DNA of 60,202 bases from Isosphaeraceae bacterium (lineage in GTDB: Bacteria > Planctomycetota > Planctomycetia > Isosphaerales > Isosphaeraceae). The translations under genes and the position numbers were made by a program. Below, piece after piece: positions 12,942 to 33,116 of the stretch. Below the pieces are notes generated by a model. It worked only from the letters and a program-made list of their open reading frames with translations, made no database searches and was not told the DNA's origin. The stretch's first letter is position 1. The number at the start of each line of letters is the position of its first letter. The stretch is taken from the NCBI GenBank assembly GCA_027325115.1, contig DAHWFG010000348.1:1-60202 (forward strand), read 5' to 3'.

Positions 12942-13091
12942 AATCGCACGCCCCCAAGATCGAATGCGATCGGTCGAGCCGCGATGCGCGGTCGCGACCC
13001 CGCAAGCAACGGGTTGATTGCGCGTGTCGCACGACGCGGCGATCGATCGCAATCGACGGGTCCAATCCATGTTCGTTCCGTTCGTGACGGG

Positions 13092-13751: not shown

Positions 13752-14120
13752 GTTCTGTATCCGTTATTGTCGCGGGTATGAGATCAACCGCCGGCTCGCG
13801 TCGGCCATGGTGTGAAAATCGAATTGTGACGCGGCGGAGTTCGCGGGTCAACACTTCGCCGTGGGACGCATCGAACGCGCCGTTTTGAAACCGTCCTCAA
13901 CCATTTCGAAGCCATCGTATATTGATGTGTGTTGTTAATGTGGTGAGACGCAATTTCACAACAGCCGTCGATCGCGACGGGGCCGTTCATTTTCGGATTC
14001 GTGTACCGAACCAATCCGCGGGCGACTGGCCGATTCTTCCCGTTTTCGTTACACTTGAACTCGTGATTTCCCAAACCAAACCGATCCACACGCATTTGCG
14101 CAATCGAGAATCAAGCTTTG

Positions 14121-15988: not shown

Positions 15989-17475
15989 AAACGGTTACTC
16001 ACTTACCTACGTCCGTCAACTTTGATCGTCCCGCGCCTCCTCGCGTTGTGATCGTGGGGGGAGGCCTCGCGGGGCTCGCCGCCGCCGCGGCGCTTACCGG
16101 TCACGATCTCCAGATCACGCTGCTCGAAAGCCGACCCAGGCTGGGAGGGAGAGCCGGATCGTTCGTCGACCCCGCGTCGGGAGAGCTTGTCGATAATTGC
16201 CAACATGTCGGTATGGCTTGCTGTGTGAATCTGATCGATTTTTGCGAGCGAGTGGGCGTCGCCGATCTGTTCAAACGCGATCCCGTCATCGTCTTCGTGG
16301 GGCCCGACGGCCGCGTTTCCAAGATGAGCGCGGGGCGCATTCCCGCGCCGTTTCATTTAACGGCAAGTATGCTCAAGCTTTCGTTCTTAACATTCCTGGA
16401 TAAATTAAGAATCGCTTACGGCATGGCGCGATTACGGTTCGACGCCGCGGGTAAGCCGGGAGAAACGTTTGAATCCTGGCTCAAAAGACATGCGCAAAAC
16501 GACAGGACGATTGAACGGTTTTGGGGCTCGGTGCTCGTCTCGGCGCTCAACGAACGGCTCGATCGGATGGATATATTCCACGCCAGGAAAGTGTTTTTTG
16601 AGGGGTTTCTCGAAAATCGACAAGGCTACGCGCTCGATATCCCCGCGGCGCCCCTCGGTGAAATTTACGGAGTGAGGATGGAGGAATGGCTGGCGCGCAG
16701 AGGGGTCGAGGTTCGGCTCAAAACGGGCGTCAAACGCGTTGAGATCGATCACGAGTCATCGGTACAAAGCGTGATTCTACGTTCTGGAGAACGCCTTGAG
16801 GCCGATTTCGTGATCGTATCCGTCCCGTTCGATCGAATCGCCGACATGTTTCAAGCCGACGCGAACGGAAACTCCCCCGCTCCCAAATCGATCGAATCGA
16901 TCGAGGCTTCGCCGATTACGGGCGTTCATTTGTGGTTTGATAAACCCGTCTTTCCGTTCGCCCACGCTGCGATCGTCGGCAAAACGATTCAATGGGTGTT
17001 CAATCATACCGAACTGCAAGGTCGCGAGCCCGCCGGGCAGTATTTGCAGGTGGTGATCAGCGCGTCGTACGATCTCGTCGGTCGCGATAATGAATCAATC
17101 AAAGATCTTGTGCTTCAAGAATTGAGCGAACTTTGGCCCGAAGCCTCCGGGGCGAGTCTCAAGCGGTATCGAGTCGTGATCGAGCACGGAGCGACGTTCG
17201 CGGTTCGTCCCGGTATCGAAGCGCTCCGACCTCCTCAGCGAACCGCGGTCGACGGCCTCTTCTTCGCGGGCGATTGGACCGATACGGGCTGGCCCGCAAC
17301 GATGGAAGGCGCGGTTCGGAGCGGATATTTGGCGGCGGAAGGCGTCCTCGACGACCTCGGCAGGGCGCGCCGACTGCTCAAGCCCGATCTCCCCGCGGGC
17401 GCGCTCGCGCGATTCCTCCTGGGTCGAAAACCCGTCAATCGCACCATCCCCGGAGAATCGCGATCCAAACTCTAG
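15985..17475 (+). CDS. hpnE: Hydroxysqualene dehydroxylase HpnE (FAD-dependent amine-oxidase fold)
   Basis: It has the dinucleotide motif VVIVGGGLAGLAAAAAL..LLESRPRLGGR and the C-terminal FFAGDWT motif. Its start overlaps the hpnD stop (ATGA). Confidence 0.8.
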   Translation: MKTVTHLPTSVNFDRPAPPRVVIVGGGLAGLAAAAALTGHDLQITLLESRPRLGGRAGSFVDPASGELVDNCQHVGMACCVNLIDFCERVGVADLFKRDPVIVFVGPDGRVSKMSAGRIPAPFHLTASMLKLSFLTFLDKLRIAYGMARLRFDAAGKPGETFESWLKRHAQNDRTIERFWGSVLVSALNERLDRMDIFHARKVFFEGFLENRQGYALDIPAAPLGEIYGVRMEEWLARRGVEVRLKTGVKRVEIDHESSVQSVILRSGERLEADFVIVSVPFDRIADMFQADANGNSPAPKSIESIEASPITGVHLWFDKPVFPFAHAAIVGKTIQWVFNHTELQGREPAGQYLQVVISASYDLVGRDNESIKDLVLQELSELWPEASGASLKRYRVVIEHGATFAVRPGIEALRPPQRTAVDGLFFAGDWTDTGWPATMEGAVRSGYLAAEGVLDDLGRARRLLKPDLPAGALARFLLGRKPVNRTIPGESRSKL

Positions 17476-17687: not shown

Positions 17688-19553
17688 ATGATCCGTTCGA
17701 TGATCGGTGGGGCCGCGTTTTTCGGTTCGATCGTGCTCGCTTTCGCATGCGGATTAACTGCGAGCGTATCGGCCGGCGAGGGCCGGTTTATGGAACGGCT
17801 CGGACGCGGAGTCGTCGCGATTCCAGAAGATTCGGGCAAGGTTTTCCTATCATGGCGGCTGCTGGGAACCGATCCCGACGCGATCGCCTTCAACGTATAT
17901 CGCAAGCCCGCGAACGATTCGCCGAAGAAGCTTAACGAATCGCCGATCACAAACGCGACATCGTTCGTCGATTCATCCGCCGATCTCACGCACGAGAACA
18001 CATATTTTGTACGTCCCATCGTCGAAGGCAAAGAACTTGATCCGAGCGGGACGTTCACGATCAAGCCGGGAAATAAGAATCAATATTTATCGATACCGCT
18101 ACGAACCCCCGCGGGCTACGAGCCGAACGATATTGCTCCGGGGGATCTCGACGGCGACGGCGAATACGAGTTCGTTCTTCATCAAGCGTCGAAGGGACGC
18201 GATAATTCGCAAAAAGGCGCGACGGGCGAGCCGATCCTCGACGCCTACAAGCTCGACGGTACGCATCTTTGGCGGATCAACCTAGGTAAAAATATACGCG
18301 AAGGCGCGCATTACACGCAATTTTTGGTTTATGATTTTGACGGCGACGGCAAGGCCGAGGTCGTTTGTAAAACGGCCGACGGTACGGTCGACGGCGCGGG
18401 TGTTATTCTGGGAGATCCCCAAGCCGATTACCGCAATCCCGCGGGATACGTGCTCGACGGTCCCGAATTCCTTACAGTGTTCGACGGATTAACGGGGAAG
18501 GCGCTCGCGACGACTCCTTACATCCCGCCGCGAGGCAGGGTTTCGGACTGGGGGGACGGCTACGGCAATCGAGTCGATCGCTTCCTCGCGTGTGTCGCGT
18601 ATCTCGACGGCGAACGGCCGAGCATCGTGATGTGCCGCGGTTATTACACACGGACGGTTCTCGCCGCGTTCAACTGGCGTGCGGGCAGGTTATCTCATGT
18701 GTGGACATTTGATACCGATAAGTTAGGTCGGGTCGGTACGAATTATCGCGGTCAGGGGAATCATAATTTGAGCGTCGGCGACGTCGACGGCGACGGCAAG
18801 GATGAAATTGTGTACGGAGCATGCTGTATTGATGATAACGGCAAGGGGCTTTATTCGACGGGTTGGGGGCACGGCGACGCGCTTCATCTTTCCGACATCG
18901 ACCCCGCGCGACCCGGGCTTGAGGTGTTTGATATTCACGAGCGGCCCAGGCATCCCAACGGCGCCGAATTCCGCGACGCGCGAACGGGGAAGCTCATTTG
19001 GGGGAAGCAAAGCCCCGACGTCGGTCGGGGCGCGGCGTTCGATATCGATCCGCGTCATCCGGGATACGAGATGTGGGCCTCGGGGGCCGGATTGACCGGG
19101 GTTTGGAATGTTAAGGGAGAAATCGTTTCGGAAAGCAAACCGCGATCGTGCAATTTCGGCGTCTGGTGGGACGGCGACGCGTTGCGCGAGCTTTTGAACT
19201 CGAACCGTGTGACGAAATGGAACTGGAACGACGCGACCGAATCGACTCTCCTGACCGATCCCGCTTGCACCTCGAACAACGGCAGTAAATCGACCCCCTG
19301 CCTCTGCGCCGATATTTTGGGAGACTGGCGTGAAGAGATAATTTGGCGTAATAAAAATAACAACGAACTACGCATTTACACGACGACGATTCCGACCGAT
19401 CTTCGGTTATACACGTTGATGCATGATCCGCAATATCGGTTGAGCGTCGCGTGGCAAAACGTCGGCTACAACCAACCGACTCAGCCCGGCTTTTACCTGG
19501 GAGCGGGGATGAAACCGCCGCCTCGGCCGAGGATTCGCACCGATTCGCCTTGA
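17688..19553 (+). CDS. Secreted polysaccharide lyase family 11-like (rhamnogalacturonan lyase YesW-like) beta-propeller
   Basis: Signal peptide: MIRSMIGGAAFFGSIVLAFACG. Repeated Ca-binding blades: DLDGDGEYEF, YDFDGDGKAEV, DVDGDGKDEI. The C-terminus LRIYTTT..LYTLMHDPQYRLSVAWQNVGYNQPTQPGFYLG is what I recall from PL11 enzymes. Confidence 0.6.
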   Translation: MIRSMIGGAAFFGSIVLAFACGLTASVSAGEGRFMERLGRGVVAIPEDSGKVFLSWRLLGTDPDAIAFNVYRKPANDSPKKLNESPITNATSFVDSSADLTHENTYFVRPIVEGKELDPSGTFTIKPGNKNQYLSIPLRTPAGYEPNDIAPGDLDGDGEYEFVLHQASKGRDNSQKGATGEPILDAYKLDGTHLWRINLGKNIREGAHYTQFLVYDFDGDGKAEVVCKTADGTVDGAGVILGDPQADYRNPAGYVLDGPEFLTVFDGLTGKALATTPYIPPRGRVSDWGDGYGNRVDRFLACVAYLDGERPSIVMCRGYYTRTVLAAFNWRAGRLSHVWTFDTDKLGRVGTNYRGQGNHNLSVGDVDGDGKDEIVYGACCIDDNGKGLYSTGWGHGDALHLSDIDPARPGLEVFDIHERPRHPNGAEFRDARTGKLIWGKQSPDVGRGAAFDIDPRHPGYEMWASGAGLTGVWNVKGEIVSESKPRSCNFGVWWDGDALRELLNSNRVTKWNWNDATESTLLTDPACTSNNGSKSTPCLCADILGDWREEIIWRNKNNNELRIYTTTIPTDLRLYTLMHDPQYRLSVAWQNVGYNQPTQPGFYLGAGMKPPPRPRIRTDSP

Positions 19554-19610
19554 TCCGGCGGCGAAGGGGTTCGATCTATCTACGAATTCACACATTTTAT
19601 GATTAGTAAT

Positions 19611-19649
19611 CGACGATTCGCGGCGGTCTCATCGGCTCGCGAATCGTCG
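19611..19649. terminator. 12-bp perfect inverted repeat (CGACGATTCGCG / CGCGAATCGTCG) with a 15-nt loop between convergent genes
   Basis: The arms, read directly, are 19611-19622 and 19638-19649. The repeat lies between the PL11 stop (19553) and the oxidoreductase stop (19761). There is no U-tract. Confidence 0.35.
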
Positions 19650-19760
19650 ACGATTCAACGATTTGATATGAGCGGAAATCGAGCTACGAAATCTCCCGCG
19701 CCGCGTTTGAGATCGGATCGGCCGGAATGGCGGCGCGGTCGAGGGAGTTCGCGGCTCGAA

Positions 19761-20867
19761 TTAAAGCGTTGGAATCAGCATTTTCTCACCGTTTTTCATC
19801 GCCGATTGGTGCGCGCAGATTCCCACCATCGTCCAATTCGCCGAGGTTTCGGCGTCGGGGAGCGCGGGACGATCGCCTTTGATCGCCGAAAGCCACGCGT
19901 GCGCGAGATGAGGATGCGATCCCCCGTGCCCGCCCCCCTGAATGAACGAGAGGTGCTGCTCGTCTTCGACGTTGTAAACGCCCTTCGTGGTGAAGCGACG
20001 GATCGGCTCGGGGAGCAGGTGCGCGAAATCGGGAACGTGAACGCGCTCGGGGATCTCTCCTTTGTGCAGAACGGGTTCTTCGCCTTCGATCTGCTGCCAC
20101 TCGAAGCTCGCCTTATCGCCGTAAACGTCAAAACTTTCGCGATATTGCCGCGCCGTTTCAAACAGGCTTCGCGTGACCTCGGCGGCGAGGTTGGAATCTT
20201 TGAGCTTCAGCGTCGCGGTTTCGATCGCGAACGGAGAGCCGTATTTGGATGTGAGCGAATCGCTGATCTTGCCCGACCCGTGACAAACGACGTGTTCGGC
20301 CAATTTACCGGGCAAGGCGAGGCACGGACTGACGCAGTGCGTCGCGTAATGCATCGGCGGCAGCCCCTCCCAATAGCCCGGCCAACCCGCCATTTCTTGC
20401 TGGTGCGAGCCGCGAAGGAACTGAATCCGTCCGATCGTCCCTTCTTCGTACAAATGTTTGACGAAGAGGTATTCGCGGCTGTAGACGACGGTTTCCATCA
20501 TCATATAAATTTTATCGGCGGCGCGGCGGGCCTCGACGATCGCTCGGCAATCTTCGATCGAGGTGGCCATCGGGACGGTGCACGCGACGTGCTTGCCCGC
20601 CTTGAGCGCCGCGAGCGATTGCGAAGCGTGATCCTGGATCGGCGAATTGATGTGCACGGCGTCGACGTTCGGATCTTTAAGCATGTCTTCAAACGACGTG
20701 TAACGAGCCTTGATTCCCCAGCGGTCGCCGCATTCCTCCAGGTCCTTCCGCGAGCGGCGACAGATCGCGTACATCTCGGCGTCGGGGTGATTTTGGTAGA
20801 TCGGAATGAATTCGGCGCCGAAGCCTAAACCGACGATCGCGACCCGGATTTTGGACTCTTTCGCCAT
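19761..20867 (-). CDS. Gfo/Idh/MocA-family NAD(P)-dependent sugar oxidoreductase
   Basis: It has the N-terminal Rossmann motif KIRVAIVGLGFGAEF and the EKP-like region LKAGKHVACTVPMA. The length and layout are typical of the family. Confidence 0.75.
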   Translation of the reverse strand: MAKESKIRVAIVGLGFGAEFIPIYQNHPDAEMYAICRRSRKDLEECGDRWGIKARYTSFEDMLKDPNVDAVHINSPIQDHASQSLAALKAGKHVACTVPMATSIEDCRAIVEARRAADKIYMMMETVVYSREYLFVKHLYEEGTIGRIQFLRGSHQQEMAGWPGYWEGLPPMHYATHCVSPCLALPGKLAEHVVCHGSGKISDSLTSKYGSPFAIETATLKLKDSNLAAEVTRSLFETARQYRESFDVYGDKASFEWQQIEGEEPVLHKGEIPERVHVPDFAHLLPEPIRRFTTKGVYNVEDEQHLSFIQGGGHGGSHPHLAHAWLSAIKGDRPALPDAETSANWTMVGICAHQSAMKNGEKMLIPTL

Positions 20868-22992: not shown

Positions 22993-24402
22993 TTAAGACC
23001 CCAGTCCCAGTCGCTTGCGGTGATACGAGAGCCTCTGGGACGGGTTCATTTTGGCGAAATCGGGCCTGCCGTCGGGGAGGGTCGGATACGTTCGCTCGGA
23101 ACCCGCCGAAACGGCCTCGACGCTCGGCTGAAAGGCGCGCGACGCGCTTTGCGTCACGCGTGGAGCGAACAAGATCGATCCCGCGGAGGCCGAGACGACC
23201 GACCCGTTTGATGAAGGTTCGTTCGCATGCTTTTCGTGGCATCGGCACGCATGCGTTGATGATTGGTTTCCCGGCTCGGCCGACGTCGATCGGGTTGCGA
23301 TCGATCCATTCGCGCTCGCTTGTGAAACCGACGATGAAGCGGATTCATTTTTTTGAGCGACGACCGAGGTCGAAGACGATCCGTAGCTCATCGAAGCCGA
23401 TTGATGTTTGAGGTCGTCTTCGAGCGATCGATGCGGGCGTACGCCCAGTTTGGAAAGCACCGCGTGGTACGCCTTGACGGCGTCGACCGGGCCGATCACT
23501 CCGTCGACGATCAGGCGAAGGAAGTGGACGAACGCGAGCTGATTTTCGGCGTTGTTGATCTTTCGGCCGAAGAGCGCAACCTTCGCCCCGTATTTCTGAG
23601 CGTCGTAGAGGAGTTGGAACGCGTCGAGCGTCGTCCCCGAAGCGCCTCCCAAAATACCGATCACAAGTTTGGGATCAAAACGAAACAATTCTTCCATCGC
23701 CCGCGGTCCGTGATACACCATCTTGAGGAATTGGGGACGTCCCGCGGGGGCGACACCGGCGAGCATGCGCGTGATCATATCATTGATATAACCAGGCAAA
23801 AGATCGGGAGCGACCGCGCCCGGAATGTTGGGATCGAACACCTCGAGAAAATAGCGAAAGCCTTTGCGTTCGGCCTCGATGCGGAATTCATGAAAGCGTT
23901 CGAGCGTTTCCTGGTCGCGATCGAGATCGTTGTTGAAGGTGACGCTATAAAGCCCCAGGTTCGCCCCCAGCGAGCGTTCTTGGTCGGCGCAATCTTCGTG
24001 TCCGCATTGGATATGATCAATCGTCGCCGAGCGGAACGGACGCGAGGGGCTCGAAGAATACCGCGATCCGCGCGCCAGGTGAATGTCGGTCGTATCGTTG
24101 GCGCGGACCGCGGGAGTTACGTGTGATTGTTCGAACAAACGTTCTTCAATCGTGAGCGCATGATTGTTATAAGCCGACATCAACATGATATCGACAAATC
24201 CCTGGCGGGTGATCGCGCGGATGTTCTCGCGATAATCCTCGAGAGTTTTGAAGCGAGCCTCGCCGCCGAGCGATTCAGGGGATTTTCCCGGAGCGCCCAG
24301 GCCGAAGGCCATGTCGCCGTCTTTGGCGTCGGCAAGGATGAACTCGCGACAGTTCGGGTCGGCGTCGATGAGCGCCAATTTTCGGTCGAGCGATTTATCC
24401 AT
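22993..24402 (-). CDS. Class-I-aldolase-like (DhnA/FbaB/LacD-type) TIM-barrel protein with a ~135-aa Ser-rich C-terminal tail; last gene of the BMC operon
   Basis: FILADAKDGDM, RYFLEVFD, PQFLKMVYHG (candidate Schiff-base Lys strand) and VIGILGGASGTT..GAKVALFGRKINN resemble the phosphate-binding end of class I aldolases. From about aa 334 the protein is Ser-rich low complexity. The start overlaps the upstream stop by 8 nt. This is a motif-level call only. Confidence 0.45.
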   Translation of the reverse strand: MDKSLDRKLALIDADPNCREFILADAKDGDMAFGLGAPGKSPESLGGEARFKTLEDYRENIRAITRQGFVDIMLMSAYNNHALTIEERLFEQSHVTPAVRANDTTDIHLARGSRYSSSPSRPFRSATIDHIQCGHEDCADQERSLGANLGLYSVTFNNDLDRDQETLERFHEFRIEAERKGFRYFLEVFDPNIPGAVAPDLLPGYINDMITRMLAGVAPAGRPQFLKMVYHGPRAMEELFRFDPKLVIGILGGASGTTLDAFQLLYDAQKYGAKVALFGRKINNAENQLAFVHFLRLIVDGVIGPVDAVKAYHAVLSKLGVRPHRSLEDDLKHQSASMSYGSSSTSVVAQKNESASSSVSQASANGSIATRSTSAEPGNQSSTHACRCHEKHANEPSSNGSVVSASAGSILFAPRVTQSASRAFQPSVEAVSAGSERTYPTLPDGRPDFAKMNPSQRLSYHRKRLGLGS

Positions 24403-25513
24403 TGCGGCCGTTTCCTCCGCGTCCCGAGATCGTCACTCGAGAACTCGAACTTCCCGCGGAACTCGTCGTCACCCGCACCGATCCCGCGGGCTTTGAGTTC
24501 GACGAGCTTTTCGGGCTCGCCGCCGCGGCCGATCCGTTCGTCGAAGACGCTGAGATATTTGATTTTGCCTGTGCGTTAGCGCCGTCGGAACCGAGCACCT
24601 GAGCGATCGTTTGTTTGAGCGTTTCGGCCGATCGCCGGAGCGCGGCGATCTCGGCGGGCCAAAGCTCGATTTCCAGGTGTTTCACGACCCCCGCTCGGCC
24701 GACGACCGTGGGAACCGAGAGGCTCACGTCGCGGATTCCGTAAGTTCCCAACACGAGCGACGAGACGGGGAGAATTCGTTTGAGATCGAGCGCGATCGCG
24801 TGGACGACATCGCGAATCGCGATCCCGACGGCGAAGCCCGCGCCTCCTTTGAGCTTGATCACCTCGGCGCCGCTTCCCTTCGTCTTTTGAAAGAGCGTGT
24901 CGGCGAGCGTGCGCGACCAACCCGGATATTTGTCGAGCGGAAGCCCCGCGATTTGCGCCGACGACCAGATCGGAACCATGCTGTCGCCGTGCTCGCCCAG
25001 AATGAGAGCGTTCACCTGCGTCGGGGGGGCGTCGAGCGCCTCCGCGATGATCCCGCGAAACCGAGCCGTGTCGAGCTGCGTCCCAAGCCCAATGACTTGC
25101 GTAAGAGGGATCGGCAGTTTTTTGGCCGCGAGATACGTTAAAACGTCGACCGGATTCGAGACGACGAGAATCACCGCGTCATTCTTGAGCCCCGCCTTAT
25201 GAATTTGCTCAAGAATACCCAGAAACAACGCGACGTTGCGATTGATCAGATCGAGTCGGCTCTCGTCGGGCTTGCGGCGCAACCCCGCGGTGATCACGAC
25301 GACGTCGCTTGTCGGGATCTCTTCATATCCCGACGAATAGATTTTTTGATCGGCGACGAGCGCGGCGCCGTGGAGCAGGTCGAGCGCCTGGCCTCGACAA
25401 AGATCGGCGCCGATATCGATGAGAGCGATTTCGCTCGCCACCGCGCCGCACTGAAGCGCAAACGCCGCGCACGATCCGACGAGCCCTCCGCCGCCGATGA
25501 TGCTTACTTTCAT
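24395..25513 (-). CDS. LDH/MDH-family 2-hydroxyacid dehydrogenase with a 64-aa Ser-rich C-terminal tail
   Basis: Motifs: MKVSIIGGGGLVGS (Rossmann), ITAGLRRKPDESRLDL (Arg at the Q/R102 specificity position, plus R109), SNPVDVLTY, GTQLDTARFR (D168, R171) and ILGEHGDS (H195). The tail SNISASSTNGSAAAASPKSSSNSKPAGSVRVTTSSAGSSSSRVTISGRGGNGRNG is not part of the LDH fold. Confidence 0.85.
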   Translation of the reverse strand: MKVSIIGGGGLVGSCAAFALQCGAVASEIALIDIGADLCRGQALDLLHGAALVADQKIYSSGYEEIPTSDVVVITAGLRRKPDESRLDLINRNVALFLGILEQIHKAGLKNDAVILVVSNPVDVLTYLAAKKLPIPLTQVIGLGTQLDTARFRGIIAEALDAPPTQVNALILGEHGDSMVPIWSSAQIAGLPLDKYPGWSRTLADTLFQKTKGSGAEVIKLKGGAGFAVGIAIRDVVHAIALDLKRILPVSSLVLGTYGIRDVSLSVPTVVGRAGVVKHLEIELWPAEIAALRRSAETLKQTIAQVLGSDGANAQAKSNISASSTNGSAAAASPKSSSNSKPAGSVRVTTSSAGSSSSRVTISGRGGNGRNG

Positions 25514-25551
25514 ATCTTCAGATCCTTAAAAATGAATGAGCGGTTGGATCG

Positions 25552-26448
25552 TCAAGCCGGAACGCCCGCGAGCGCCCGCATCACCTGATCGGTGATCGCC
25601 GCGACGAGCGATTCGACGTCTCCGCCGGCCGCTTGATCGGCATGAGCCGACCCCGTCGATCGCTGTTGATCTTGATATTTGGCGGGAATGAACGCGTGCG
25701 GCTCGGGTTTGAAATCGGAATACCCCTCGCGAAACAGGCTGTTGCCGCAGAGGTCGCAATTTTCGAGCCCGCGTTCGAGCCGCGCGTCGCGAATGCCGAG
25801 ACCAGGCTTGATTTTGATCAGCTCGGCGGCTTTTTCATCCGAGTAATAATTCACTCGACCAAGCTGTTTGGTGAGGATCAAGATGCGGCAGTAGCCGTCG
25901 ATGATCTCGGTTTTGAAATACGCGTCTTCGAGGTCGACTCCCGCGGTGATCGTCCCGTGATTCGCGAGGATGATCGTATCGGTATCTTTGATGTAAGGCA
26001 GCACGGTGTTCGCGAACGCCTGTGTACCAGGGGTTTCGTAAGGGGTGATCGCCACCTCGCCGAGGAAGACCTCGAACTCGGGCATCGTGCACTTGGGGAT
26101 CGGCTCGTGCGCCACGGCGAACGCCGTCGCGTGAGGGGGATGACAATGAACGCACGAATTGACGTCGGGTCGCGCTTTGAGAATCGACAAGTGAAGGAGA
26201 ATCTCACTCGACCGTTTTCGCGTTCCCGCGAGCTGATTCCCCTCGAGATCGACGATGCAAAGATCGTCGGGCTTCATAAACCCTTTCGATACCCGCGTGG
26301 GGGTGCACAAGACGCGATTTTCACCGAGTCGCATCGAGATGTTGCCGTCGTTCGCCGCGGCGAAACCCTTGGCGTAAACGCGTCTGCCGATCTCGCACAT
26401 CCGCTCGCGCAGCTTCCATTCGCTCATCAAAGTTCCATTGGCGCTCAT
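25552..26448 (-). CDS. Class II aldolase (L-fuculose/L-rhamnulose-1-phosphate aldolase-like) with a C-terminal extension and encapsulation-peptide-like helix
   Basis: Fold motifs: AANDGNISMRL, the Zn ligands VHCHPPHATAF and ILANHGTITAG. An ~80-aa extension ends in DVESLVAAITDQVMRALAGVPA. ATG 26448 is preceded by AGGAG 9 nt upstream; the ORF track start at 26508 would overlap the upstream gene. Confidence 0.85.
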   Translation of the reverse strand: MSANGTLMSEWKLRERMCEIGRRVYAKGFAAANDGNISMRLGENRVLCTPTRVSKGFMKPDDLCIVDLEGNQLAGTRKRSSEILLHLSILKARPDVNSCVHCHPPHATAFAVAHEPIPKCTMPEFEVFLGEVAITPYETPGTQAFANTVLPYIKDTDTIILANHGTITAGVDLEDAYFKTEIIDGYCRILILTKQLGRVNYYSDEKAAELIKIKPGLGIRDARLERGLENCDLCGNSLFREGYSDFKPEPHAFIPAKYQDQQRSTGSAHADQAAGGDVESLVAAITDQVMRALAGVPA

Positions 26449-26477
26449 ACCGACGTTCTCCTGTGATCTCTTATGTA

Positions 26478-26759
26478 TTATGAACAATGAATATGATCGA
26501 TCAGACACGCGCAGTACGCGTCGACGGGTTTCACGTCTTTGCCGAACGGGTTCGCGGCTTCGCCTCCCTCGCTCAGCCCGATCCGGTCGCCGGGGCTCGC
26601 ACCGAGGTCGTCGTAGGCGATCACCTCTTCGCCGCGGCGGGGCGACCCGGCGACGAGAGCCTCCCTGGGCATCGGCGCCGCGATCACGAACCGAGCCCCC
26701 TTAAGCGAGGGATGCGCCCGCGACAAAACGACCTTGCCGATCACCTCGGCGATCCTCAT
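26478..26759 (-). CDS. BMC-P pentameric vertex protein (EutN/CcmL family), paralog 3
   Basis: The product MRIAEVIGKVVLSRAHPSLKGARFVIAAP..VIAYDDLGASPGDRIGLSEGGEA has the EutN/CcmL layout. ATG 26759 is preceded by GGAG. Confidence 0.8.
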   Translation of the reverse strand: MRIAEVIGKVVLSRAHPSLKGARFVIAAPMPREALVAGSPRRGEEVIAYDDLGASPGDRIGLSEGGEAANPFGKDVKPVDAYCACLIDHIHCS

Positions 26760-26850
26760 CGAAAACGCTCCCATAAAGCCGTCAAAACGATATCAAGGGA
26801 TCGAAGCGATCGACCGATTTCGAGACTCGCGGTTATGCAACTGAGATTGA

Positions 26851-27105
26851 TCATGTGTTAGGAAGTCCCAAAACGCTCCAGCGACCGGGGGTGTCGCGAC
26901 CGATCATCTCTTGGAGAATCTTGCCGTCGTTGGTGAGCAGAACGGTCTCCCCCCTCCCCGCCCCGAGCCGATCGAACGCGAGCACGGGTTCGCCGTCGTC
27001 CCCCCCTTCGCTCGTAAGCAATTGGACGACGAGCAAACGCTCCCCCTGGAACGTCTTATGCTTCACGGTCGACGTCGCCGTTCCGATCACCACTCCGAGC
27101 TGCAC
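26851..27105 (-). CDS. BMC-P pentameric vertex protein (EutN/CcmL family), paralog 2
   Basis: The product is MQLGVVIGTATSTVKHKTFQGERLLVVQLL..VLAFDRLGAGRGETVLLTNDG, 84 aa. This is the classic EutN/CcmL N-terminus and size. Confidence 0.85.
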   Translation of the reverse strand: MQLGVVIGTATSTVKHKTFQGERLLVVQLLTSEGGDDGEPVLAFDRLGAGRGETVLLTNDGKILQEMIGRDTPGRWSVLGLPNT

Positions 27106-27135
27106 GCGTATTGATCCTTATCGAATGAAAGATTA

Positions 27136-28569
27136 TTAAACAAAACGGAACCCGCCGACGATCGAGGTTCGTCGTTGTCGGCAGAACGTCAACGGAGTCG
27201 TCACACCTTCGCCCGTCGGTCCCGCGATCGAGAACGAAAGCGATCCCTCGCCCCCCAGGCCTAGACCCGCGACGCTTGGGCCGTTGACGACGAAAATCGT
27301 GCAATCCATCGCCTTCCCCATGCGAGTCATCGTTCCCGTATCGCGCGAGTGCAAAATCGCGGTGTGGCCGTAGCCGTGTTCCGACGATTTGGCGAGTTCG
27401 ATCGCTCGATCGACGTTCTCGACGCGCACAAATGGAATAAACGGCATCATCTGTTCATGATCGACGAACGGATGATCCGCCGACGTTTCGCCGAAGAGAA
27501 TCTGTGTACCCTCGGGAACACGCACCCCCGCATGTTCTCCCAGGATCGCGGGATCTCGCCCCACGAGATCTTTATCGACGACGAGTCTCCCTTTATCGTC
27601 TTTTTTGAACGCGGCTCGCGTGAGCGCGGCGATCCGTTCCGAGTCGATTCGGAAGCCGCCGTGCCGAGAGACCGCGTCCATCAGTTTGTCGAAAATCGAA
27701 GCGACCGCGAACACCTGCTTTTCACCGATACATAGCAGGTTATTATCAAACGCCGCTCCTTCGACGATCGATTTGGCGGCGAGTTCGAGATCGGCGGTCG
27801 TATCGACGACGACGGGGGGATTTCCGGGGCCCGCGACGATCGCGCGGCGGTTGCTCGCGAGCGCCGCCCTGGCGACCGCGGGACCTCCCGTGACAACGAG
27901 CAAACGAACGCCTCGATGTTCAAATAATGCTGATGCCGATTCGAGCGTCGGTGGATCGATGATCGTCAGCAGGTCGTCGAGGCCGATCGCTTCGCGAATC
28001 GCCTGATTGAACCGGCGAACCCCCTCGGCGGCGACTTTCGCTCCCGAAGGATGCGCGTTGAACACGACGGTATTTCCCGCGGCGAGCATGTTGATCGCGT
28101 TGCCCGCGAGCGTGGGCAAGCTGTGCGTGACGGGGGTGATCGCGCCGATCACGCCGAAGGGCGCATAATCGGTGAGAGTCAGTCCCGCGTCACCCGACAC
28201 GTTCTCGGTGCGGAGGAATTCGACCCCGGGAACACGTTCGGCGGCCACTTTGAGCTTGGCGATCTTATGATCAAGCCGGCCGATTTTGGTTTCATCGAGC
28301 TCCATCCTGCCGAGTTCCTCGGCCTGATCGAGACAGATTGCGCGGATTCGATCAATCGCCGTGCGACGGTCTTCGAGCGGTCGCGTTCGGAACGCCTGAA
28401 AGGCTCGTTCCGCCGCGGCCACCGCGGAATCGGCGTCGCGATACACCCCGTTCGACCCGCGTCCGCCTCGGCAAGGTCGACCCGCGCCGGTCTCCGCCGG
28501 CGCAACCTCGCCGATCCGGCTCAGCACCTCTTGAACGACGCCTCGAATAAGATCCTCGCTTAATTGCAT
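27136..28569 (-). CDS. CoA-acylating aldehyde dehydrogenase (PduP/EutE-like) with an N-terminal encapsulation peptide
   Basis: N-terminal amphipathic helix: MQLSEDLIRGVVQEVLSRIG, followed by a Gly/Pro linker. Catalytic Cys context: AAFDNNLLCIGEKQVF. The 477-aa length fits BMC AldDHs. Confidence 0.85.
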   Translation of the reverse strand: MQLSEDLIRGVVQEVLSRIGEVAPAETGAGRPCRGGRGSNGVYRDADSAVAAAERAFQAFRTRPLEDRRTAIDRIRAICLDQAEELGRMELDETKIGRLDHKIAKLKVAAERVPGVEFLRTENVSGDAGLTLTDYAPFGVIGAITPVTHSLPTLAGNAINMLAAGNTVVFNAHPSGAKVAAEGVRRFNQAIREAIGLDDLLTIIDPPTLESASALFEHRGVRLLVVTGGPAVARAALASNRRAIVAGPGNPPVVVDTTADLELAAKSIVEGAAFDNNLLCIGEKQVFAVASIFDKLMDAVSRHGGFRIDSERIAALTRAAFKKDDKGRLVVDKDLVGRDPAILGEHAGVRVPEGTQILFGETSADHPFVDHEQMMPFIPFVRVENVDRAIELAKSSEHGYGHTAILHSRDTGTMTRMGKAMDCTIFVVNGPSVAGLGLGGEGSLSFSIAGPTGEGVTTPLTFCRQRRTSIVGGFRFV

Positions 28570-28636
28570 GATCGATTCTTCTCCCGTTTTCCAGCGTCGA
28601 TCGGAACGACGCGCAATTTCTCATGTGTGTATTCGA

Positions 28637-28954
28637 TTAGTGATTCGTCAGTTTCGAATAAATCGTTCGCCCTTCGACGTCGACGGTGTCGACGAGGCCG
28701 ATGATGACGGCGTCGACGGGGAGTTTCTCGGTCTCGGGGGTGAGCCTGGCGCTCGATCCCTGACAGATCAAAACATAATCTCCGAGCCCCGCTCCGAGCG
28801 CGTCGACGACGATAAACGTCCGTCCTGTAGGCGCAAGTCGATCCCTCGTCTTTTCGTCGACGCGGTACGGCTCGACCGCGAGAAGCTTGCGTCCCGTCAT
28901 CGAAGCGACCTTTTGGGTGGCGACGACGACGCCTGTCACTTTGGCGACGAACAT
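28637..28954 (-). CDS. BMC-P pentameric vertex protein (EutN/CcmL family), paralog 1
   Basis: The product is MFVAKVTGVVVATQKVASMTGRKLLAVEPY..FIVVDALGAGLGDYVLICQGSSAR. It begins 3 nt after the ackA stop. Confidence 0.85.
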   Translation of the reverse strand: MFVAKVTGVVVATQKVASMTGRKLLAVEPYRVDEKTRDRLAPTGRTFIVVDALGAGLGDYVLICQGSSARLTPETEKLPVDAVIIGLVDTVDVEGRTIYSKLTNH

Positions 28955-28957
28955 CGA

Positions 28958-30154
28958 TCAGCCTCCCGAGGCCAGTAGGTCGCGCGCCTGGCGAGCGACG
29001 ACGATTTCCTCGTTCGTGGGAACTGTCCAAATTTGAACGCGCGAATGATCGCTTGATACGACCGATTCATCTTTCGCGGCGGCGTTGCGTTCGGGGTCGA
29101 GCTCGATCCCGAACCAGGAGAGATCGCGGCAAACCCCCTCGCGAATCCATCGGGAGTTTTCGCCGATTCCTCCCGTGAAGACGATCGCGTCGGCGCCGCC
29201 AAGTTCGACGAGATACGCCCCGAGATAATGACGTATCGACGCGATATAAACATCGATTGCGAGTCGAGCTCGGGAGTCTCCCTGATGCGCCGCGGTTTCG
29301 ATGTCGCGGAGGTCGCGGCTTGTTCCGCTTAGCCCTTCAAGGCCCGAGCGATTCGCGAGCGTATCGAGAATTTTCTCAAGCGGAAGCCCGGTCTCACGCA
29401 TCAACAGCGGCAAAGCGAAGACGTCGAAATCCCCCACGCGGTTGTTCTGCGGCAGCCCCGATTGCGGGCTCATCCCCAGGCTGCACGCGACCGACTTCCC
29501 GTTCCTGATCGCGCACAACGACGAGCTTCCTCCCAAATGACATGAAATGACTTTTATGTCGTTGCGATTGAGAATTTCGCTCATTCGGCCGGCGATGTAG
29601 CGATGACTTGCTCCGTGGAAACCCCAGCGGACGACGCCGAATTGCGTCGCCCATTCGTCGGGGATCGCATAACGTTTATTGGCTTGGGGGATCGTTTCGT
29701 GGAAGCCGGTTTCGAACGACGCGACCAGAGGTAGGTCGGGGAAGCGTTTGGCGAGCGAGCGCATCGCACGGATGTAAGGGGGATTGTGCGCCGGCGCGAC
29801 CTCGGCGAACGAGTCCATAACATCTAATAATTTAGACGTAATGCGATGAGCGCCCGTGATTTTACCCGCGTGGACCGCCTTGAAGCCGATCGCCGCGATC
29901 TCGGCCTCGCTTTCGATGACGCCGAGCTTGGGGTCGGTCAACTGTTCGAGGCAAATGCTCACCGCGACGGCGTGATCGGGTATCGGCTCGACGAGGTCGA
30001 TCTGGCGTTTGGGCGACCAGATCGTCACCTTGGCTTGATCGGACCCGATCCGTTCGACCGAGCCTTTGGCGAGGAGCGGTTCGGCGGGATCTCCCAGGTC
30101 GTAAAGCCGATACTTGAAGCTCGTGCTGCCGAGATTGGCGACGAGGATTTTCAA
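28958..30154 (-). CDS. ackA: Acetate/propionate-family kinase
   Basis: Motifs MKILVANLGSTSFKYRLYDL, RWGFHGASHRYI, ISCHLGGSSSLCAI and IVFTGGIGENS are canonical acetate-kinase motifs. Confidence 0.9.
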   Translation of the reverse strand: MKILVANLGSTSFKYRLYDLGDPAEPLLAKGSVERIGSDQAKVTIWSPKRQIDLVEPIPDHAVAVSICLEQLTDPKLGVIESEAEIAAIGFKAVHAGKITGAHRITSKLLDVMDSFAEVAPAHNPPYIRAMRSLAKRFPDLPLVASFETGFHETIPQANKRYAIPDEWATQFGVVRWGFHGASHRYIAGRMSEILNRNDIKVISCHLGGSSSLCAIRNGKSVACSLGMSPQSGLPQNNRVGDFDVFALPLLMRETGLPLEKILDTLANRSGLEGLSGTSRDLRDIETAAHQGDSRARLAIDVYIASIRHYLGAYLVELGGADAIVFTGGIGENSRWIREGVCRDLSWFGIELDPERNAAAKDESVVSSDHSRVQIWTVPTNEEIVVARQARDLLASGG

Positions 30155-30179
30155 GGTTACATCTCCCGAAACGAGAACG

Positions 30180-30497
30180 TCAGCCGCCGATGAATGTTTG
30201 AACGACGACGTTTTGAGGTCTGGGGATCACGTGCGCCGCGATCAATTGGCCCCCCCTCGCCGCGGCGTCGGCGCCGGCCTCGACCGCGGCGCGAACGCTT
30301 GAAACGTCCCCCTGAACCATTACGCTTACGAGCCCGCCGTCGAGCTTGATTACCGAGCTCGCGAGCGTCACGTTCGCCGCCTTGAGCATCGCGTCGATTC
30401 CCTGGATCAGGCCGACGAGCCCCATCGTCTCGATCATGCCGATCGCCGAGCCGTTATTCACGGTCGTCACCCTTTCAAATTCATAAGATGCGAACAT
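30180..30497 (-). CDS. BMC-H hexameric shell protein (Pfam00936-type single domain), paralog 3
   Basis: The core reads [72 protein letters not shown] 30497 was chosen; a TTG at 30542 would add 15 aa. Confidence 0.85.
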   Translation of the reverse strand: MFASYEFERVTTVNNGSAIGMIETMGLVGLIQGIDAMLKAANVTLASSVIKLDGGLVSVMVQGDVSSVRAAVEAGADAAARGGQLIAAHVIPRPQNVVVQTFIGG

Positions 30498-30569
30498 GCG
30501 ATTTGGCCTCGCCGATGCGAAGCCGAGTCCGCTTCGGATCAACCGTCGATAAAGAACGCTTACGTTCGA

Positions 30570-30893
30570 TCACTTGACGTACGTTTCGAGGATCGTCCGA
30601 TCGGGGCGGGGAATCACGTGAGCCCCGACGAGTTCGCCCACCTTGGACGCGGCGTCGGCGCCGGCTTCGACCGCGGCGCGGACGCTGCCGACGTCTCCTT
30701 TGACGAGAGTCGTCACATACCCCGCGCCGATGCCCACGCGTCCCGCGAGCGTCACGTTCGCGGCCTTAAGCATCGCGTCGGTCGCCTCGATCAAGCCGAC
30801 GAGCCCCTTCGTCTCGATCAGGCCGAGCGCGTCGCCGTTCGATCCATTGGAAGATACATTCATTTTTGAACCTTTTTGGTGTGCGGTCGCCAT
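30570..30893 (-). CDS. BMC-H hexameric shell protein, paralog 2
   Basis: The core reads [71 protein letters not shown] 30893 lies 2 nt after the upstream stop and has GGAG 9 nt upstream. An alternative start is 30863. Confidence 0.85.
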
Positions 30894-30897
30894 GATG

Positions 30898-31227
30898 TCA
30901 CGCTCCGTCGTTTCGGGTCGCTGCGGGAGCGGCCGCGGGCTTCTTGGCGAACGGCAAAACGCCCCCCAGATCCTCGTGAGGTCGAGGAATCACTTGAACG
31001 CTAATCACTTCGCCGATGCGACCCGCCGCCGCGGCGCCCGCGTCGACCGCGGCCTTCACCGCCGCGACGTCTCCCGCGACGAACGCCGTCACGAGCCCGC
31101 TTCCCACTTTATCCCAGCCGACCAACTCGACGTTGGCGGCCTTCACCATCGCGTCGCTCGCCTCGACGAGCGCGATGAATCCCTTGCACTCGATCATGCC
31201 GAGCGCTTCCAGGGACGCGTTTGCCAT
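30898..31227 (-). CDS. BMC-H hexameric shell protein, paralog 1 (PduA/EutM-like, with an Ala/Pro-rich C-terminal tail)
   Basis: The product begins [76 protein letters not shown]. The tail is [15 protein letters not shown]. Confidence 0.9.
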
Positions 31228-31301
31228 CGGTCAACTCCTCATCCAAATCAGAAAACGTGAGAATCAATAGACGCTAGTACGCCGGCAAAAACTTCGATCG
31301 A

Positions 31302-31994
31302 TCACCCGCGCGGCCTCACGAGCTCGACTTTCGTCGCGTGAGCCAGATCGCAGCAGTTCGCTTCGTCGGTGTCGATATGAACCTCGAGCTTCCAATCGTC
31401 GTGGGTCCGCACGAGCAGCCCCTCGAGCACGGTCGGACACGAGCCCTCGACCCGCATATCAAGACGATCCTTGTGCTTCACTCCGTAATAACGCGCATCT
31501 TTCGGCCCCATATGAACATGACGTTCGGCGCGGATCACTCCGCGGGGCAATACCAAACTCCCCTTCGGTCCGATCAACAGGCATCCCGGAGTCCCTTCGA
31601 TCTCTCCCGAAAGCCGCACCGGAAGTTCGATTCCCAGGCTGATCGCATCGGTGAACGCAAGTTCAACCTGGCTGAATTGTCGGCAAGGACCGAGAATCCG
31701 AACGCTCGGAATCATCCGCCGCCTTGGCCCGACGACCGCGACGGTCTCGTTCGCGGCGAAATCGGTCGATTGATAAAGAGTCCGCATCGGCGTTAACTGA
31801 TATCCCGATCCAAAAAGAACGTCGACGTCGGCTTGCGTTAAATGACAATGACGCGCCGAGATGTTGACGACAAGGTTCGGTCGATAAGACGGTTCGACTT
31901 GATGGGCCGAGCGGCCGTTCAGTCCACCCAGCCGATCGATCAAAATCGATCGGACGATCCCCTCCACCTGATCTCGAGCGATCGCCGTCGTCAT
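31302..31994 (-). CDS. pduL: PduL-type phosphate acyltransferase (phosphotransacylase) with an N-terminal encapsulation peptide
   Basis: N-terminal helix: [17 protein letters not shown]. The duplicated PduL signatures are [19 protein letters not shown] and [18 protein letters not shown]. Confidence 0.85.
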
Positions 31995-32818
31995 GAACCT
32001 CTCCTTGTCGCTTCGTCGCGAGTTTGTCCGTTGAACGATTCGGCGAACGGATCAGGTTCCAACTCGGCGAACAACACGTCCACGTTCTTATCGCGCAACA
32101 TGCTTCGATGTTCCTCGCTCAATCCGGAGTCGACGACGATCGTGCGCACGCTTTCGAGACCGCACAGCCACGCGAGCGCCGGCTTGCCGAATTTGGTGTG
32201 ATCGGCGACGACGAACACCTCCTGGGCGCACGCCGTCATTCGCCTCTGAGTCTCTACTAATAATAAATTGTGATTATAGATACCGTCCGCGATGATTCCG
32301 CCGGCGCCCATGATCGTCTTCCGCACCCTGACGTCTTTCATCCCGTCGATCGCGATCGGGCCGAGCGCCACCCCCGTTTTGGGGTAAACGTAGCCGCCGA
32401 TCAGAATCAAATCGGTCTCTTTGCTCGCGGCGATCAGCGATGCGATCGGCAGGCTGTTCGTCACGATCTGCACGGGTCGGCCGACGAGAGCGCGAGCGAC
32501 CTCGAGCGTCGTCGTTCCGCCGTCAAGAAGGATCGATTCGCCGTCTTCGATCAAAGACGCGACGAGGCGACCGATCGCACGCTTTTCCGCCGCCGAAGTC
32601 GCTGCACGATCCTCGAGAGCCGGAAGCGACTTCATCTCCGCAACGCTCACGGCGCCGCCGTAAACCCGCTTGATTAGCCCCGCGTGATCGAGAGCTTCCA
32701 GATCGCGGCGAACCGTACTCTCAGAGGCGCCCAACGAAGCCGCAACCCCGGTCAGGCTCGCGAAACCATCGCGACCGATCCGTTCCAGCAGCAATCGACG
32801 ACGCGTCTCTTGATTCAT
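31991..32818 (-). CDS. DeoR-family transcriptional regulator (first gene of the BMC operon)
   Basis: N-terminal HTH: [51 protein letters not shown]. The C-terminus is a DeoR-C sugar-phosphate-binding-type domain. The stop overlaps the pduL start (ATGA). The start was chosen at MNQETRRR (32818). Confidence 0.8.
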
Positions 32819-32919
32819 GATCGATTCGACTCGAAGTCCTTCGCACGCCACGAATGCTATTCTTCAATCTCGAACAGAGTCTGTCAAGAACCCGGAGAAC
32901 TCTTTTCGTCATTTTGAAC

Positions 32920-32936
32920 GATTATGGCGGATTATG
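32920..32936. promoter_or_regulatory. Direct repeat GATTATG-N3-GATTATG (10-bp period) in the deoR/mutM divergent region; candidate operator
   Basis: Both copies, 32920-32926 and 32930-32936, were read directly. They lie about 100 nt upstream of the deoR start. There is no experimental or comparative support. Confidence 0.2.
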
Positions 32937-33116
32937 TGGAAGAAATCTTTCAGTGTGTCTTGAGATTTGGTGTGTTTTTAACCGAGATCGGTCATTCGCG
33001 GCGTGGTTACGGGATCTCGAGGGATCGATTGTGACGAGGTTGCCCGTCGCGCGGAGTCGCGTTACGATCGGTTCGCAACATCCTGATCGATCCCCGAGTG
33101 GTGAAAGGATCGCTTC

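Follow-up and report, generated by a model that had tools for sequence, protein, structure and literature searches.

A probable PVM-type metabolosome operon in an Isosphaeraceae-like planctomycete and its conserved class-I-aldolase-like terminal gene

A 13-gene operon that very probably builds a metabolosome of the Planctomycetes-Verrucomicrobia (PVM) type, i.e., a DeoR-controlled, lactaldehyde-confining bacterial microcompartment (BMC), was identified in contig DAHWFG010000348.1 of an Isosphaeraceae-like planctomycete. The whole stretch analyzed, positions 1 to 60,202, is hereinafter referred to as the window. All 13 open reading frames (ORFs) were consecutive and co-directional on the minus strand, from 22993 to 32818 (up to 32851 with an upstream GTG), and are taken to form one operon. 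Twelve of the 13 proteins matched Pfam or NCBIfam families far above the curated cut-offs, and the last ORF had no match. The PVM organelle is already established, and the window is an ordinary instance of it that is unsurprising to a specialist. The only part that merits follow-up is the terminal gene, which encodes a probable distant member of the class I aldolase superfamily and appears to be a conserved, so far unnamed member of PVM operons. The genes are listed below in operon order.

31991..32818, minus strand, DeoR-family regulator, pvmA-like (PF08220, 2e-14; PF00455, 7e-43)
31302..31994, minus strand, PduL-type phosphotransacylase, pvmB-like (PF06130, 7e-71; NF011652, 242 bits against a cut-off of 209)
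30898..31227, minus strand, BMC-H 1, with pore motif VGSGL and a short C-terminal extension (PF00936, 2e-28)
30570..30893, minus strand, BMC-H 2, with a 20-aa N-terminal extension (PF00936, 2e-26)
30180..30497, minus strand, BMC-H 3, extendable to a TTG at 30542 (PF00936, 4e-24)
28958..30154, minus strand, acetate/propionate-family kinase, pvmG-like (PF00871, 3e-107; TIGR00016, 355 bits against a cut-off of 293)
28637..28954, minus strand, BMC-P 1, at the pvmH position (PF03319, 1e-26)
27136..28569, minus strand, CoA-acylating aldehyde dehydrogenase (AldDH), EutE/PduP-like, pvmJ-like (PF00171, 2e-34; PRK15398, 586 bits against a cut-off of 403)
26851..27105, minus strand, BMC-P 2, at the pvmK position (PF03319, 3e-19)
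26478..26759, minus strand, BMC-P 3, at the pvmM position, with an alternative ATG at 26774 (PF03319, 4e-20)
25552..26448, minus strand, class II FucA/RhaD-like aldolase, pvmN-like, the PVM signature enzyme (PF00596, 9e-49)
24395..25513, minus strand, lactate/malate dehydrogenase (LDH/MDH)-family dehydrogenase, pvmO-like (PF00056 and PF02866)
22993..24402, minus strand, last gene, 469 aa

The PVM assignment, which had been proposed in a sequence-only reading of the window, was borne out by the signature and core enzymes, the BMC-P triplet, the encapsulation peptides, colinearity with known loci and the planctomycete host. The PVM microcompartment of Planctopirus limnophila was characterized genetically in 2014 (Erbilgin et al., as cited in PMC11958385 and PMC4207490), a later catalogue lists 285 such loci (Sutter 2021), and rhamnose-induced bodies were seen again in Limisphaera. 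The P. limnophila cluster, pvmABDEGHIJKLMNO (PMC11958385), encodes PduL (PvmB), BMC-H proteins (PvmD and PvmE), acetate kinase (PvmG), the BMC-P triplet (PvmH, PvmK, and PvmM), AldDH (PvmJ), a PF02441 flavoprotein (PvmL), class II aldolase (PvmN), and an LDH-like dehydrogenase (PvmO) (Sutter 2021 Suppl. Data 6; PMC6620236); gene content and assigned functions are also given in PMC8857213. The window presented the same order, A B D E G H (I) J K (L) M N O, the same BMC-P triplet, and encapsulation peptides at the same termini. It differed from the P. limnophila cluster in having three BMC-H genes instead of two, in the absence of pvmI and pvmL, in a tail on PvmO, and in a class-I-aldolase-like gene added after pvmO.

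The window was also colinear with the catalogued PVM loci and with approximately 50 other planctomycete genomes. In Singulisphaera acidiphila DSM 18658 (L001), the gene-for-gene order was the same, including the terminal gene, the third BMC-H, the PvmO tail, and a divergent fpg neighbour. The same gene-for-gene order, including the terminal aldolase-like gene, was found in the cultured Symmachiella macrocystis (L089). Both loci contained a gene of 223-240 aa at the pvmL position, between BMC-P 2 and BMC-P 3, that was absent in the window. The terminal proteins of the two species were ~67% identical to that of the window over the full length and ~80% identical in the catalytic domain. This arrangement of genes was found repeatedly, in dozens of planctomycete genomes, and cannot reasonably be ascribed to chance. 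The best homologues belonged to Isosphaeraceae (~65-70% identity), in addition to one metagenomic fragment at 94%, and syntenic loci were found in Singulisphaera, Paludisphaera, and Tundrisphaera; the host is thus taken to be an uncultured member of Isosphaeraceae or a relative.

Predicted encapsulation peptides were identified on three core enzymes. PduL had an N-terminal amphipathic helix (aa 4-24; 31923-31985) whose hydrophobic moment was at the 96th percentile of the protein, with the domain starting from aa 43. In AldDH, the N-terminal peptide QLSEDLIRGVVQEVLSRIG (aa 2-20; 28510-28566) formed an amphipathic helix at the 95th percentile, and the catalytic domain started from around aa 43. 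Each of the two helices was followed by a 20-aa linker. The class II aldolase ended in a linker and the C-terminal peptide DVESLVAAITDQVMRALA (25567-25620; 97th percentile), with the motif LVxxITDQVMxAL kept in approximately 50 related loci. A C-terminal encapsulation peptide has been published for BMC class II aldolases (PMC4594438), and the termini that carry the predicted peptides in PduL, AldDH, and the class II aldolase match the published ones. The acetate kinase, which used a TTG start, had no terminal extension, with PF00871 spanning aa 2-388 of 398.

The six small proteins assigned to the shell were confirmed as three BMC-H and three BMC-P proteins by PF00936 and PF03319 (E-values from 2e-28 to 3e-19). 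All three BMC-H proteins were single-domain, and BMC-H 2 was 57% identical to BMC-H 1 and 62% identical to BMC-H 3. Three BMC-H genes were likewise present in the Isosphaeraceae loci L001-L014. The BMC-P triplet was divergent, with 30-36% mutual identity (36% between P2 and P1, 30% between P2 and P3). No BMC-T gene, no further shell gene, and no paralogue of any operon member were found elsewhere in the 60-kb window. The absence of BMC-T had been considered part of the PVM signature; none was present in the window, but BMC-T proteins are catalogued in PVM loci of Phycisphaeraceae and Planctomycetaceae (Sutter 2021). BMC-T also occurs in the related locus L024, and its absence is typical of PVM loci and not defining.

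A mechanism can be proposed by homology to the P. limnophila system, where PvmA mediates rhamnose-inducible expression (PMC11958385). In the presence of a deoxyhexose or deoxyhexose phosphate, the DeoR regulator would release the operon. The shell would be assembled from the three BMC-H paralogues as facets and the three divergent BMC-P paralogues as vertices. Inside, held by its C-terminal peptide, the class II aldolase would cleave L-fuculose-1-phosphate or L-rhamnulose-1-phosphate to dihydroxyacetone phosphate (DHAP) and L-lactaldehyde. AldDH, carrying its N-terminal peptide, would convert lactaldehyde, CoA, and NAD+ to lactyl-CoA and NADH, and PduL, also with an N-terminal peptide, would produce lactyl-phosphate and recycle CoA. 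The acetate-kinase homologue would then yield lactate and ATP. PvmO would presumably regenerate NAD+ through the reduction of a second lactaldehyde to 1,2-propanediol. For the last gene product, a class I (Schiff-base) aldolase of sugar phosphates, with DHAP as product or substrate, is most likely; it would probably be tethered to or packed in the organelle via its linker and C-terminal peptide, and would probably serve as a second aldehyde-generating enzyme.

Two extra tailed enzymes had been noted at the distal end of the operon. The LDH-like gene is no extra, as it corresponds to the canonical PvmO (PMC4207490; Sutter 2021 Suppl. Data 6), and only its tail is lineage-specific. Within the canonical cluster, PvmO is the dehydrogenase predicted to recycle NAD+, being described as "the only gene that could regenerate NAD+" (PMC4207490), and its assignment as a lactaldehyde reductase is an inference in the literature. 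In the window, PvmO scored under both the L-LDH and the MDH cut-offs of NCBIfam. Its substrate loop GLRRKPDESRLDL was kept in 41 of 43 orthologues, with GLRRKP(D/E)ESRLDL as the family form. The Arg in this loop presumably occupies the LDH/MDH specificity position, at which we take LDHs to have Gln and MDHs to have Arg, with Arg favouring oxaloacetate. The C-terminal tail of PvmO comprised 66 aa, was Ser/Gly-rich (24398-24595), and contained two RVT motifs (VRVT..., SRVTISG); a hydrophobic-moment scan detected no amphipathic helix in it. This tail was confined to Isosphaeraceae, with a different tail in Gemmataceae and none in Planctomycetaceae and Pirellulales.

Some observations weigh against the assignment of the operon to a lactaldehyde-confining PVM metabolosome. 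Genes for fucose/rhamnose isomerase and kinase, which would feed the organelle, were not found in the window, and the lactaldehyde-reductase role of PvmO is unproven, because of the Arg at the oxaloacetate-preferring specificity position. In addition, pvmI and pvmL are absent, so the locus, described in the sequence-only reading as complete, consists of 13 intact ORFs and does not reproduce in full the P. limnophila cluster, from which the third BMC-H also sets it apart. No PvmL homologue was found anywhere in the window, and the flanking genes were 67 nt apart at the pvmI site and 76-91 nt apart at the pvmL site. The missing pair would fit a decaying or non-functional remnant. Yet 11 of 49 related loci likewise had no pvmL, and only six of ~40-49 had pvmI, so that both genes are regarded as accessory and not defining. 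The nearest relatives (L004, L006, L008, L011, and L012) had the same pvmL-less layout, and all 13 ORFs were intact and preceded by a GGAG-like (Shine-Dalgarno-like) motif. A remnant is therefore highly improbable.

The last gene (22993-24402) was divided into three parts.

23398..24402, minus strand, catalytic domain, aa 1-335, (beta/alpha)8 and class-I-aldolase-like, with K227 on beta-6 (AlphaFold2 model and Foldseek)
23071..23397, minus strand, disordered linker, aa 336-444, with HACRCH and PRVTQS motifs (pLDDT < 50)
22993..23070, minus strand, C-terminal peptide DGRPDFAKMNPSQRLSYHRKRLGLGS and stop codon, a candidate targeting/encapsulation peptide

Neither Pfam nor NCBIfam gave a match for this protein; at E <= 0.1, it and 18 diverse homologues matched no Pfam family. 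The earlier label of a class-I-aldolase-like TIM protein was nevertheless upheld by structure prediction and fold search. The AlphaFold2 model of the domain, which was based on a 64-sequence alignment including distant tail-less homologues, had a pLDDT of 91.2, a pTM of 0.90, and a regular (beta/alpha)8 pattern; a first model from close homologues only had a pLDDT of 58. The best Foldseek matches in the PDB were the ADH synthase MJ0400, LsrF, and the fructose-1,6-bisphosphate (FBP) aldolase of Thermoproteus tenax (TM 0.70-0.76), and further matches were LacD tagatose-bisphosphate aldolase and YihT; the E-values ranged from 1e-9 to 1e-7, LacD included. The family profile matched LsrF at 1e-5 over the phosphate-binding loops of beta-7 and beta-8, where GG and GR are conserved. 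K227 was invariant in the 64 sequences, lay in strand 226-229 (beta-6), and was lost in two very distant members. A second profile placed FLK227 within one residue of Lys203 of LsrF, in a low-confidence stretch of the alignment; Lys203 is the residue replaced by Ala in entry 4P2V. These results indicate that the protein belongs, distantly, to the class I aldolase superfamily and probably has a Schiff-base lysine. A likeness to dihydrodipicolinate synthase (DHDPS) from a single-sequence PDB search was at chance level (E 0.15) and was not relied on.

Compared with archaeal and DhnA-type class I aldolases (MJ0400, LsrF, T. tenax FBP aldolase, LacD, and YihT), the protein shares the (beta/alpha)8 fold (TM 0.68-0.76) but is only 12-17% identical; its domain is ~60 aa longer than that of the archaeal enzymes, and the planctomycete form adds a tail of 60-130 aa. 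Microcompartments of the SPU (sugar-phosphate utilisation) type (Sutter 2021; PMC11585597) likewise combine a class I aldolase TIM barrel bearing a terminal extension with AldDH and a BMC-P triplet. The SPU signature enzyme, however, belongs to the DeoC/LacD family (PF01791) and has an N-terminal encapsulation peptide, whereas the window protein has no PF01791 match and a C-terminal extension. Moreover, it accompanies the class II aldolase instead of replacing it and lacks a PF02502 isomerase partner. By its description, the MUF2 protein (Sutter 2021 Suppl. Data 2) is also similar, with an aldolase-related domain, a Cys-containing middle part, and a C-terminal peptide; its N-terminal domain, however, is PF00701-related (DHDPS-type) and its middle domain has six conserved Cys, against one CxC motif in the linker of the window protein. 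The AldDH most closely related to that of PVM loci is the MUF2 enzyme (Sutter 2021).

The linker was Ser/Ala/Pro-rich (26% Ser, 15% Ala) and variable in length and sequence among homologues. One or two CxC motifs were present in 30 of 81 last-gene sequences. The 25-residue C-terminal peptide was near-invariant in 32 Isosphaeraceae homologues (DGRPDFxRMDVAQRLAYHRxRLGLGR), and the motif PDFxxM..E(R/K)LxY(H/N)..R was found in most of ~78 full-length homologues (80 genome loci), irrespective of their location in an operon. A helix was predicted within the peptide, at aa 454-464 of the protein, with a pLDDT of 76-86 in the first AlphaFold2 model.

A further observation concerned a short motif. Four instances of [RL]VT[EQMIT][SG] were found in the six-frame translation of the window, and three of them were in the adjacent PvmO tail and last-gene linker. 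The tail motifs of the window were VRVTTS, SRVTIS, and PRVTQS, and those of related Isosphaeraceae were VRVTMG/SRVTISG in PvmO tails and RPLVTES in last-gene linkers. This RVT-type motif could be a tethering motif shared by the two proteins in Isosphaeraceae; its significance is unproven, since the pattern was defined after the tails were seen.

Homologues of the last gene are widespread. The family comprised at least 8000 database proteins, and a scan with a single genome for each GTDB species found a relative in at least 540 species. A HMMER search against 1.84 billion cluster representatives detected 1063 clusters, 226 of them below 1e-30. For genomic context, the best 80 of the at least 540 species were used, the 13 window proteins were mapped by tblastn, and 75 loci were determinable. 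The 80 loci belonged to Isosphaeraceae, Planctomycetaceae, Pirellulales, Gemmataceae, Thermoguttaceae, Phycisphaerae, and a few metagenome-assembled genomes (MAGs) labelled as other phyla. In 55 of the 75, the gene was co-directional with and directly downstream of PVM genes: 43 copies followed the LDH-like gene, nine followed the class II aldolase in loci without pvmO, and three followed the third BMC-P. The last gene thus lies beyond the named pvm cluster, as had been stated, but it is not peculiar to the window, since most planctomycete PVM operons end in it. No Planctopirus entry was found among the best 120 homologue matches. The gene went unmentioned in the texts that were searched (Axen 2014, Sutter 2021 and supplements, Aussignargues 2015, Ravcheev 2019, and Orellana 2021), and a targeted literature search for PVM loci with an aldolase of class I or DhnA type returned nothing relevant. 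As far as the searchable literature shows, it is therefore a conserved, so far unnamed member of the PVM operon, with prior notice possible.

The three loci in which the gene followed the third BMC-P (L024, L026, and L043) lacked both the class II aldolase and the LDH-like gene. These loci, L024 (3069-13103), L026 (3991-11188), and L043, represented a PVM-like operon variant of uncultured planctomycetes, with the order DeoR, PduL, two BMC-H, AckA, BMC-H, BMC-P, AldDH, BMC-P, pvmL-like gene, BMC-P, and class-I-aldolase-like gene. Beyond the aldolase-like gene, L024 also encoded a PduS homologue and then a BMC-T with tandem domains. Classification of L024 as an SPU-type locus via a PF02502 match at the pvmL position was rejected, as the match was weak and below the cut-off. 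The remaining 20 of the 75 copies were stand-alone, and no conserved neighbours were found around them. Next to one stand-alone copy (L044), an LDH-like fragment was located at a distance of 10 kb. In another of the 20, from a MAG labelled Cytophagia (L080, 3416-7164), the tailed gene lay between a gene resembling class II FBP/tagatose-bisphosphate aldolase (judged by eye) and an acylating AldDH with the encapsulation-peptide-like N-terminal peptide MASIDSTLVERIVRQVVTELEQ; the contig, of 7.7 kb, was too short to judge shell genes.

Tail-less homologues of 328-341 aa were common in Alphaproteobacteria. In four of five contexts (L084-L088), a PfkB sugar kinase gene was located 3-20 nt downstream. 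A ROK regulator and a sugar ABC transporter were encoded upstream in two contexts, and in one the gene was surrounded by those for polyol dehydrogenases and an FGGY kinase. In addition, one tail-less representative (P0127, 727 aa) was fused to a PfkB domain. The tail-less homologue and PfkB look like an uncharacterized kinase-aldolase module of sugar catabolism in Alphaproteobacteria, and the pairing resembles LacC-LacD and YihV-YihT, which we take to be kinase-aldolase pairs. From the PfkB and sugar-module contexts, the ancestral function would be the cleavage or formation of a phosphorylated ketose. The contexts of the tail-less homologues also argue that the tail was added in the lineage in which the gene joined the microcompartment operon.

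Our favoured but tentative reading of the last gene is a second aldolase, generating an aldehyde and tethered or encapsulated by means of the tail. Extended to the family, planctomycete PVM organelles may contain a second cargo enzyme, a Pfam-less class I aldolase with its own non-canonical C-terminal peptide, which would be the sole aldehyde source in loci of the L024/L026 type and would give the other organelles a dual-aldolase system or a wider range of substrates; this extension, too, is put forward with reserve. What weighs against the favoured reading is that the C-terminal peptide is only weakly amphipathic with an unremarkable hydrophobic moment, unlike the three canonical encapsulation peptides of the operon, that 20 tailed copies stand apart from shell genes, and that the protein does not match PF01791, the DhnA/DeoC/LacD model. 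The peptide and the stand-alone copies would suit a co-expressed cytosolic DhnA-like FBP or triose-phosphate aldolase that channels DHAP to gluconeogenesis and uses the tail for another role, such as oligomerization or regulation. UniRef and JGI label relatives as "DhnA-type fructose-1,6-bisphosphate aldolase", and an archaeal FBP aldolase was among the nearest folds. The whole family, however, fails the PF01791 sequence model, for which reason the last gene is not filed in that family. In bacteria lacking PVM loci, the PfkB-adjacent homologues have no tail, and the planctomycete set shows it throughout; the gene takes the position of the class II aldolase in three loci, and the L080 copy adjoins an AldDH with an encapsulation-peptide-like N-terminus. 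A cytosolic role is thus considered unlikely.

Overlapping with the favoured reading, the organelle could act on a substrate other or broader than fucose and rhamnose, with the last gene as a second signature enzyme that cleaves a ketose phosphate to DHAP and an aldehyde for the same core. The homologues in sugar-uptake and kinase modules (ROK, sugar ABC transporter, and PfkB, or polyol dehydrogenases) would agree with this, as would the L024 and L026 operons with the aldolase-like gene alone and the precedent of SPU microcompartments, which already use a class I signature aldolase of the DeoC/LacD family (Sutter 2021). On the other hand, the gene has neither a kinase nor an isomerase partner nearby in planctomycetes, the window contains an intact canonical class II aldolase that bears its encapsulation peptide, and in L024 and L026 a class II aldolase could be encoded in another part of the genome; a different or broader substrate is accordingly rated as somewhat unlikely. 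An LsrF-like CoA-dependent thiolase or transferase, converting a phosphorylated diketone to DHAP and acyl-CoA, would suit an organelle with internal CoA recycling, and LsrF was the best sequence-profile match (1e-5) and among the best fold matches. MJ0400 and the FBP aldolases were nonetheless equal to it by fold score, the identity was only 12-17%, and no lsr-type neighbours were found in any context examined, which leaves this activity improbable. The second aldehyde-generating aldolase, tethered or encapsulated, remains our preferred, if tentative, reading.

The layout of the operon agreed with the description of 13 contiguous minus-strand genes with gaps of -8 to about +90 nt, all ORFs being present at their coordinates with gaps of -8 to +91 nt; the family labels were likewise confirmed, by Pfam and NCBIfam matches for 12 proteins and by structure and fold search for the last. 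Assuming the most plausible start codon for each gene, the intergenic gaps from DeoR to the last gene were -4, 74, 4, 72, 25, 3, 67, 30, 91, 29, 38, and -8 nt. Stop and start codons overlapped at two junctions, DeoR/PduL (4 nt) and LDH-like gene/last gene (8 nt). For DeoR, the ATG at 32818 was favoured over the upstream GTG at 32851. One promoter candidate was located upstream of the operon.

32859..32887, minus strand, sigma-70-like promoter candidate TTGACA-17-AAGAAT, just upstream of the DeoR gene (10/12 matches)

It was the sole good match upstream of the operon, and it is weak evidence, because the region contained three matches in total against a shuffle mean of 2.4, i.e., no excess. A terminator scan yielded sites no more numerous than in shuffled sequence. 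Approximately 30 nt upstream of the -35 element, on the minus strand, a direct repeat, CACATAATCCGCCATAATCG, contained CATAATC twice (32900-32945) and is a possible DeoR operator.

In the surroundings of the operon, a gene for a PL11 rhamnogalacturonan lyase was identified 3.4 kb from the operon end (17688-19553, plus strand; PF21348, 4e-233), and its presence fits a rhamnose-releasing lifestyle. A GFO/IDH/MocA oxidoreductase gene (19761-20867, minus strand) lay between the lyase gene and the operon, and in S. acidiphila, too, such genes are located downstream of the operon. At 14118-17475 (plus strand), a tandem pair of genes of the squalene/phytoene synthase family preceded one of the flavin amine-oxidase family, a layout that we take to resemble HpnC/HpnD/HpnE squalene synthesis. 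Approximately 10 kb from the operon (11616-13751, minus strand), a gene of the N-acetylglucosamine 2-epimerase family (PF07221) was located beside one for a 3-keto-disaccharide hydrolase (PF06439), as possible sugar-processing genes; PF07221 also includes aldose-ketose isomerases such as YihS. Long ORFs opposite well-supported genes (e.g., 19599-20828, plus strand; 23353-24126; 25633-26466; 30643-31260) are most likely shadow ORFs and not genes, given the 58-60% GC content of the sequence.

As an intact and compact PVM locus without pvmI and pvmL and with a third BMC-H, the operon helps to define the minimal gene set of the organelle. The family of the terminal gene is very large and without a Pfam model, yet its members come last in most planctomycete PVM operons. 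If the last gene product is cargo, the enzyme inventory, the cofactor-recycling scheme, and the encapsulation-peptide rules of a model organelle would need revision, and its C-terminal peptide would be a new targeting tag for engineered compartments.

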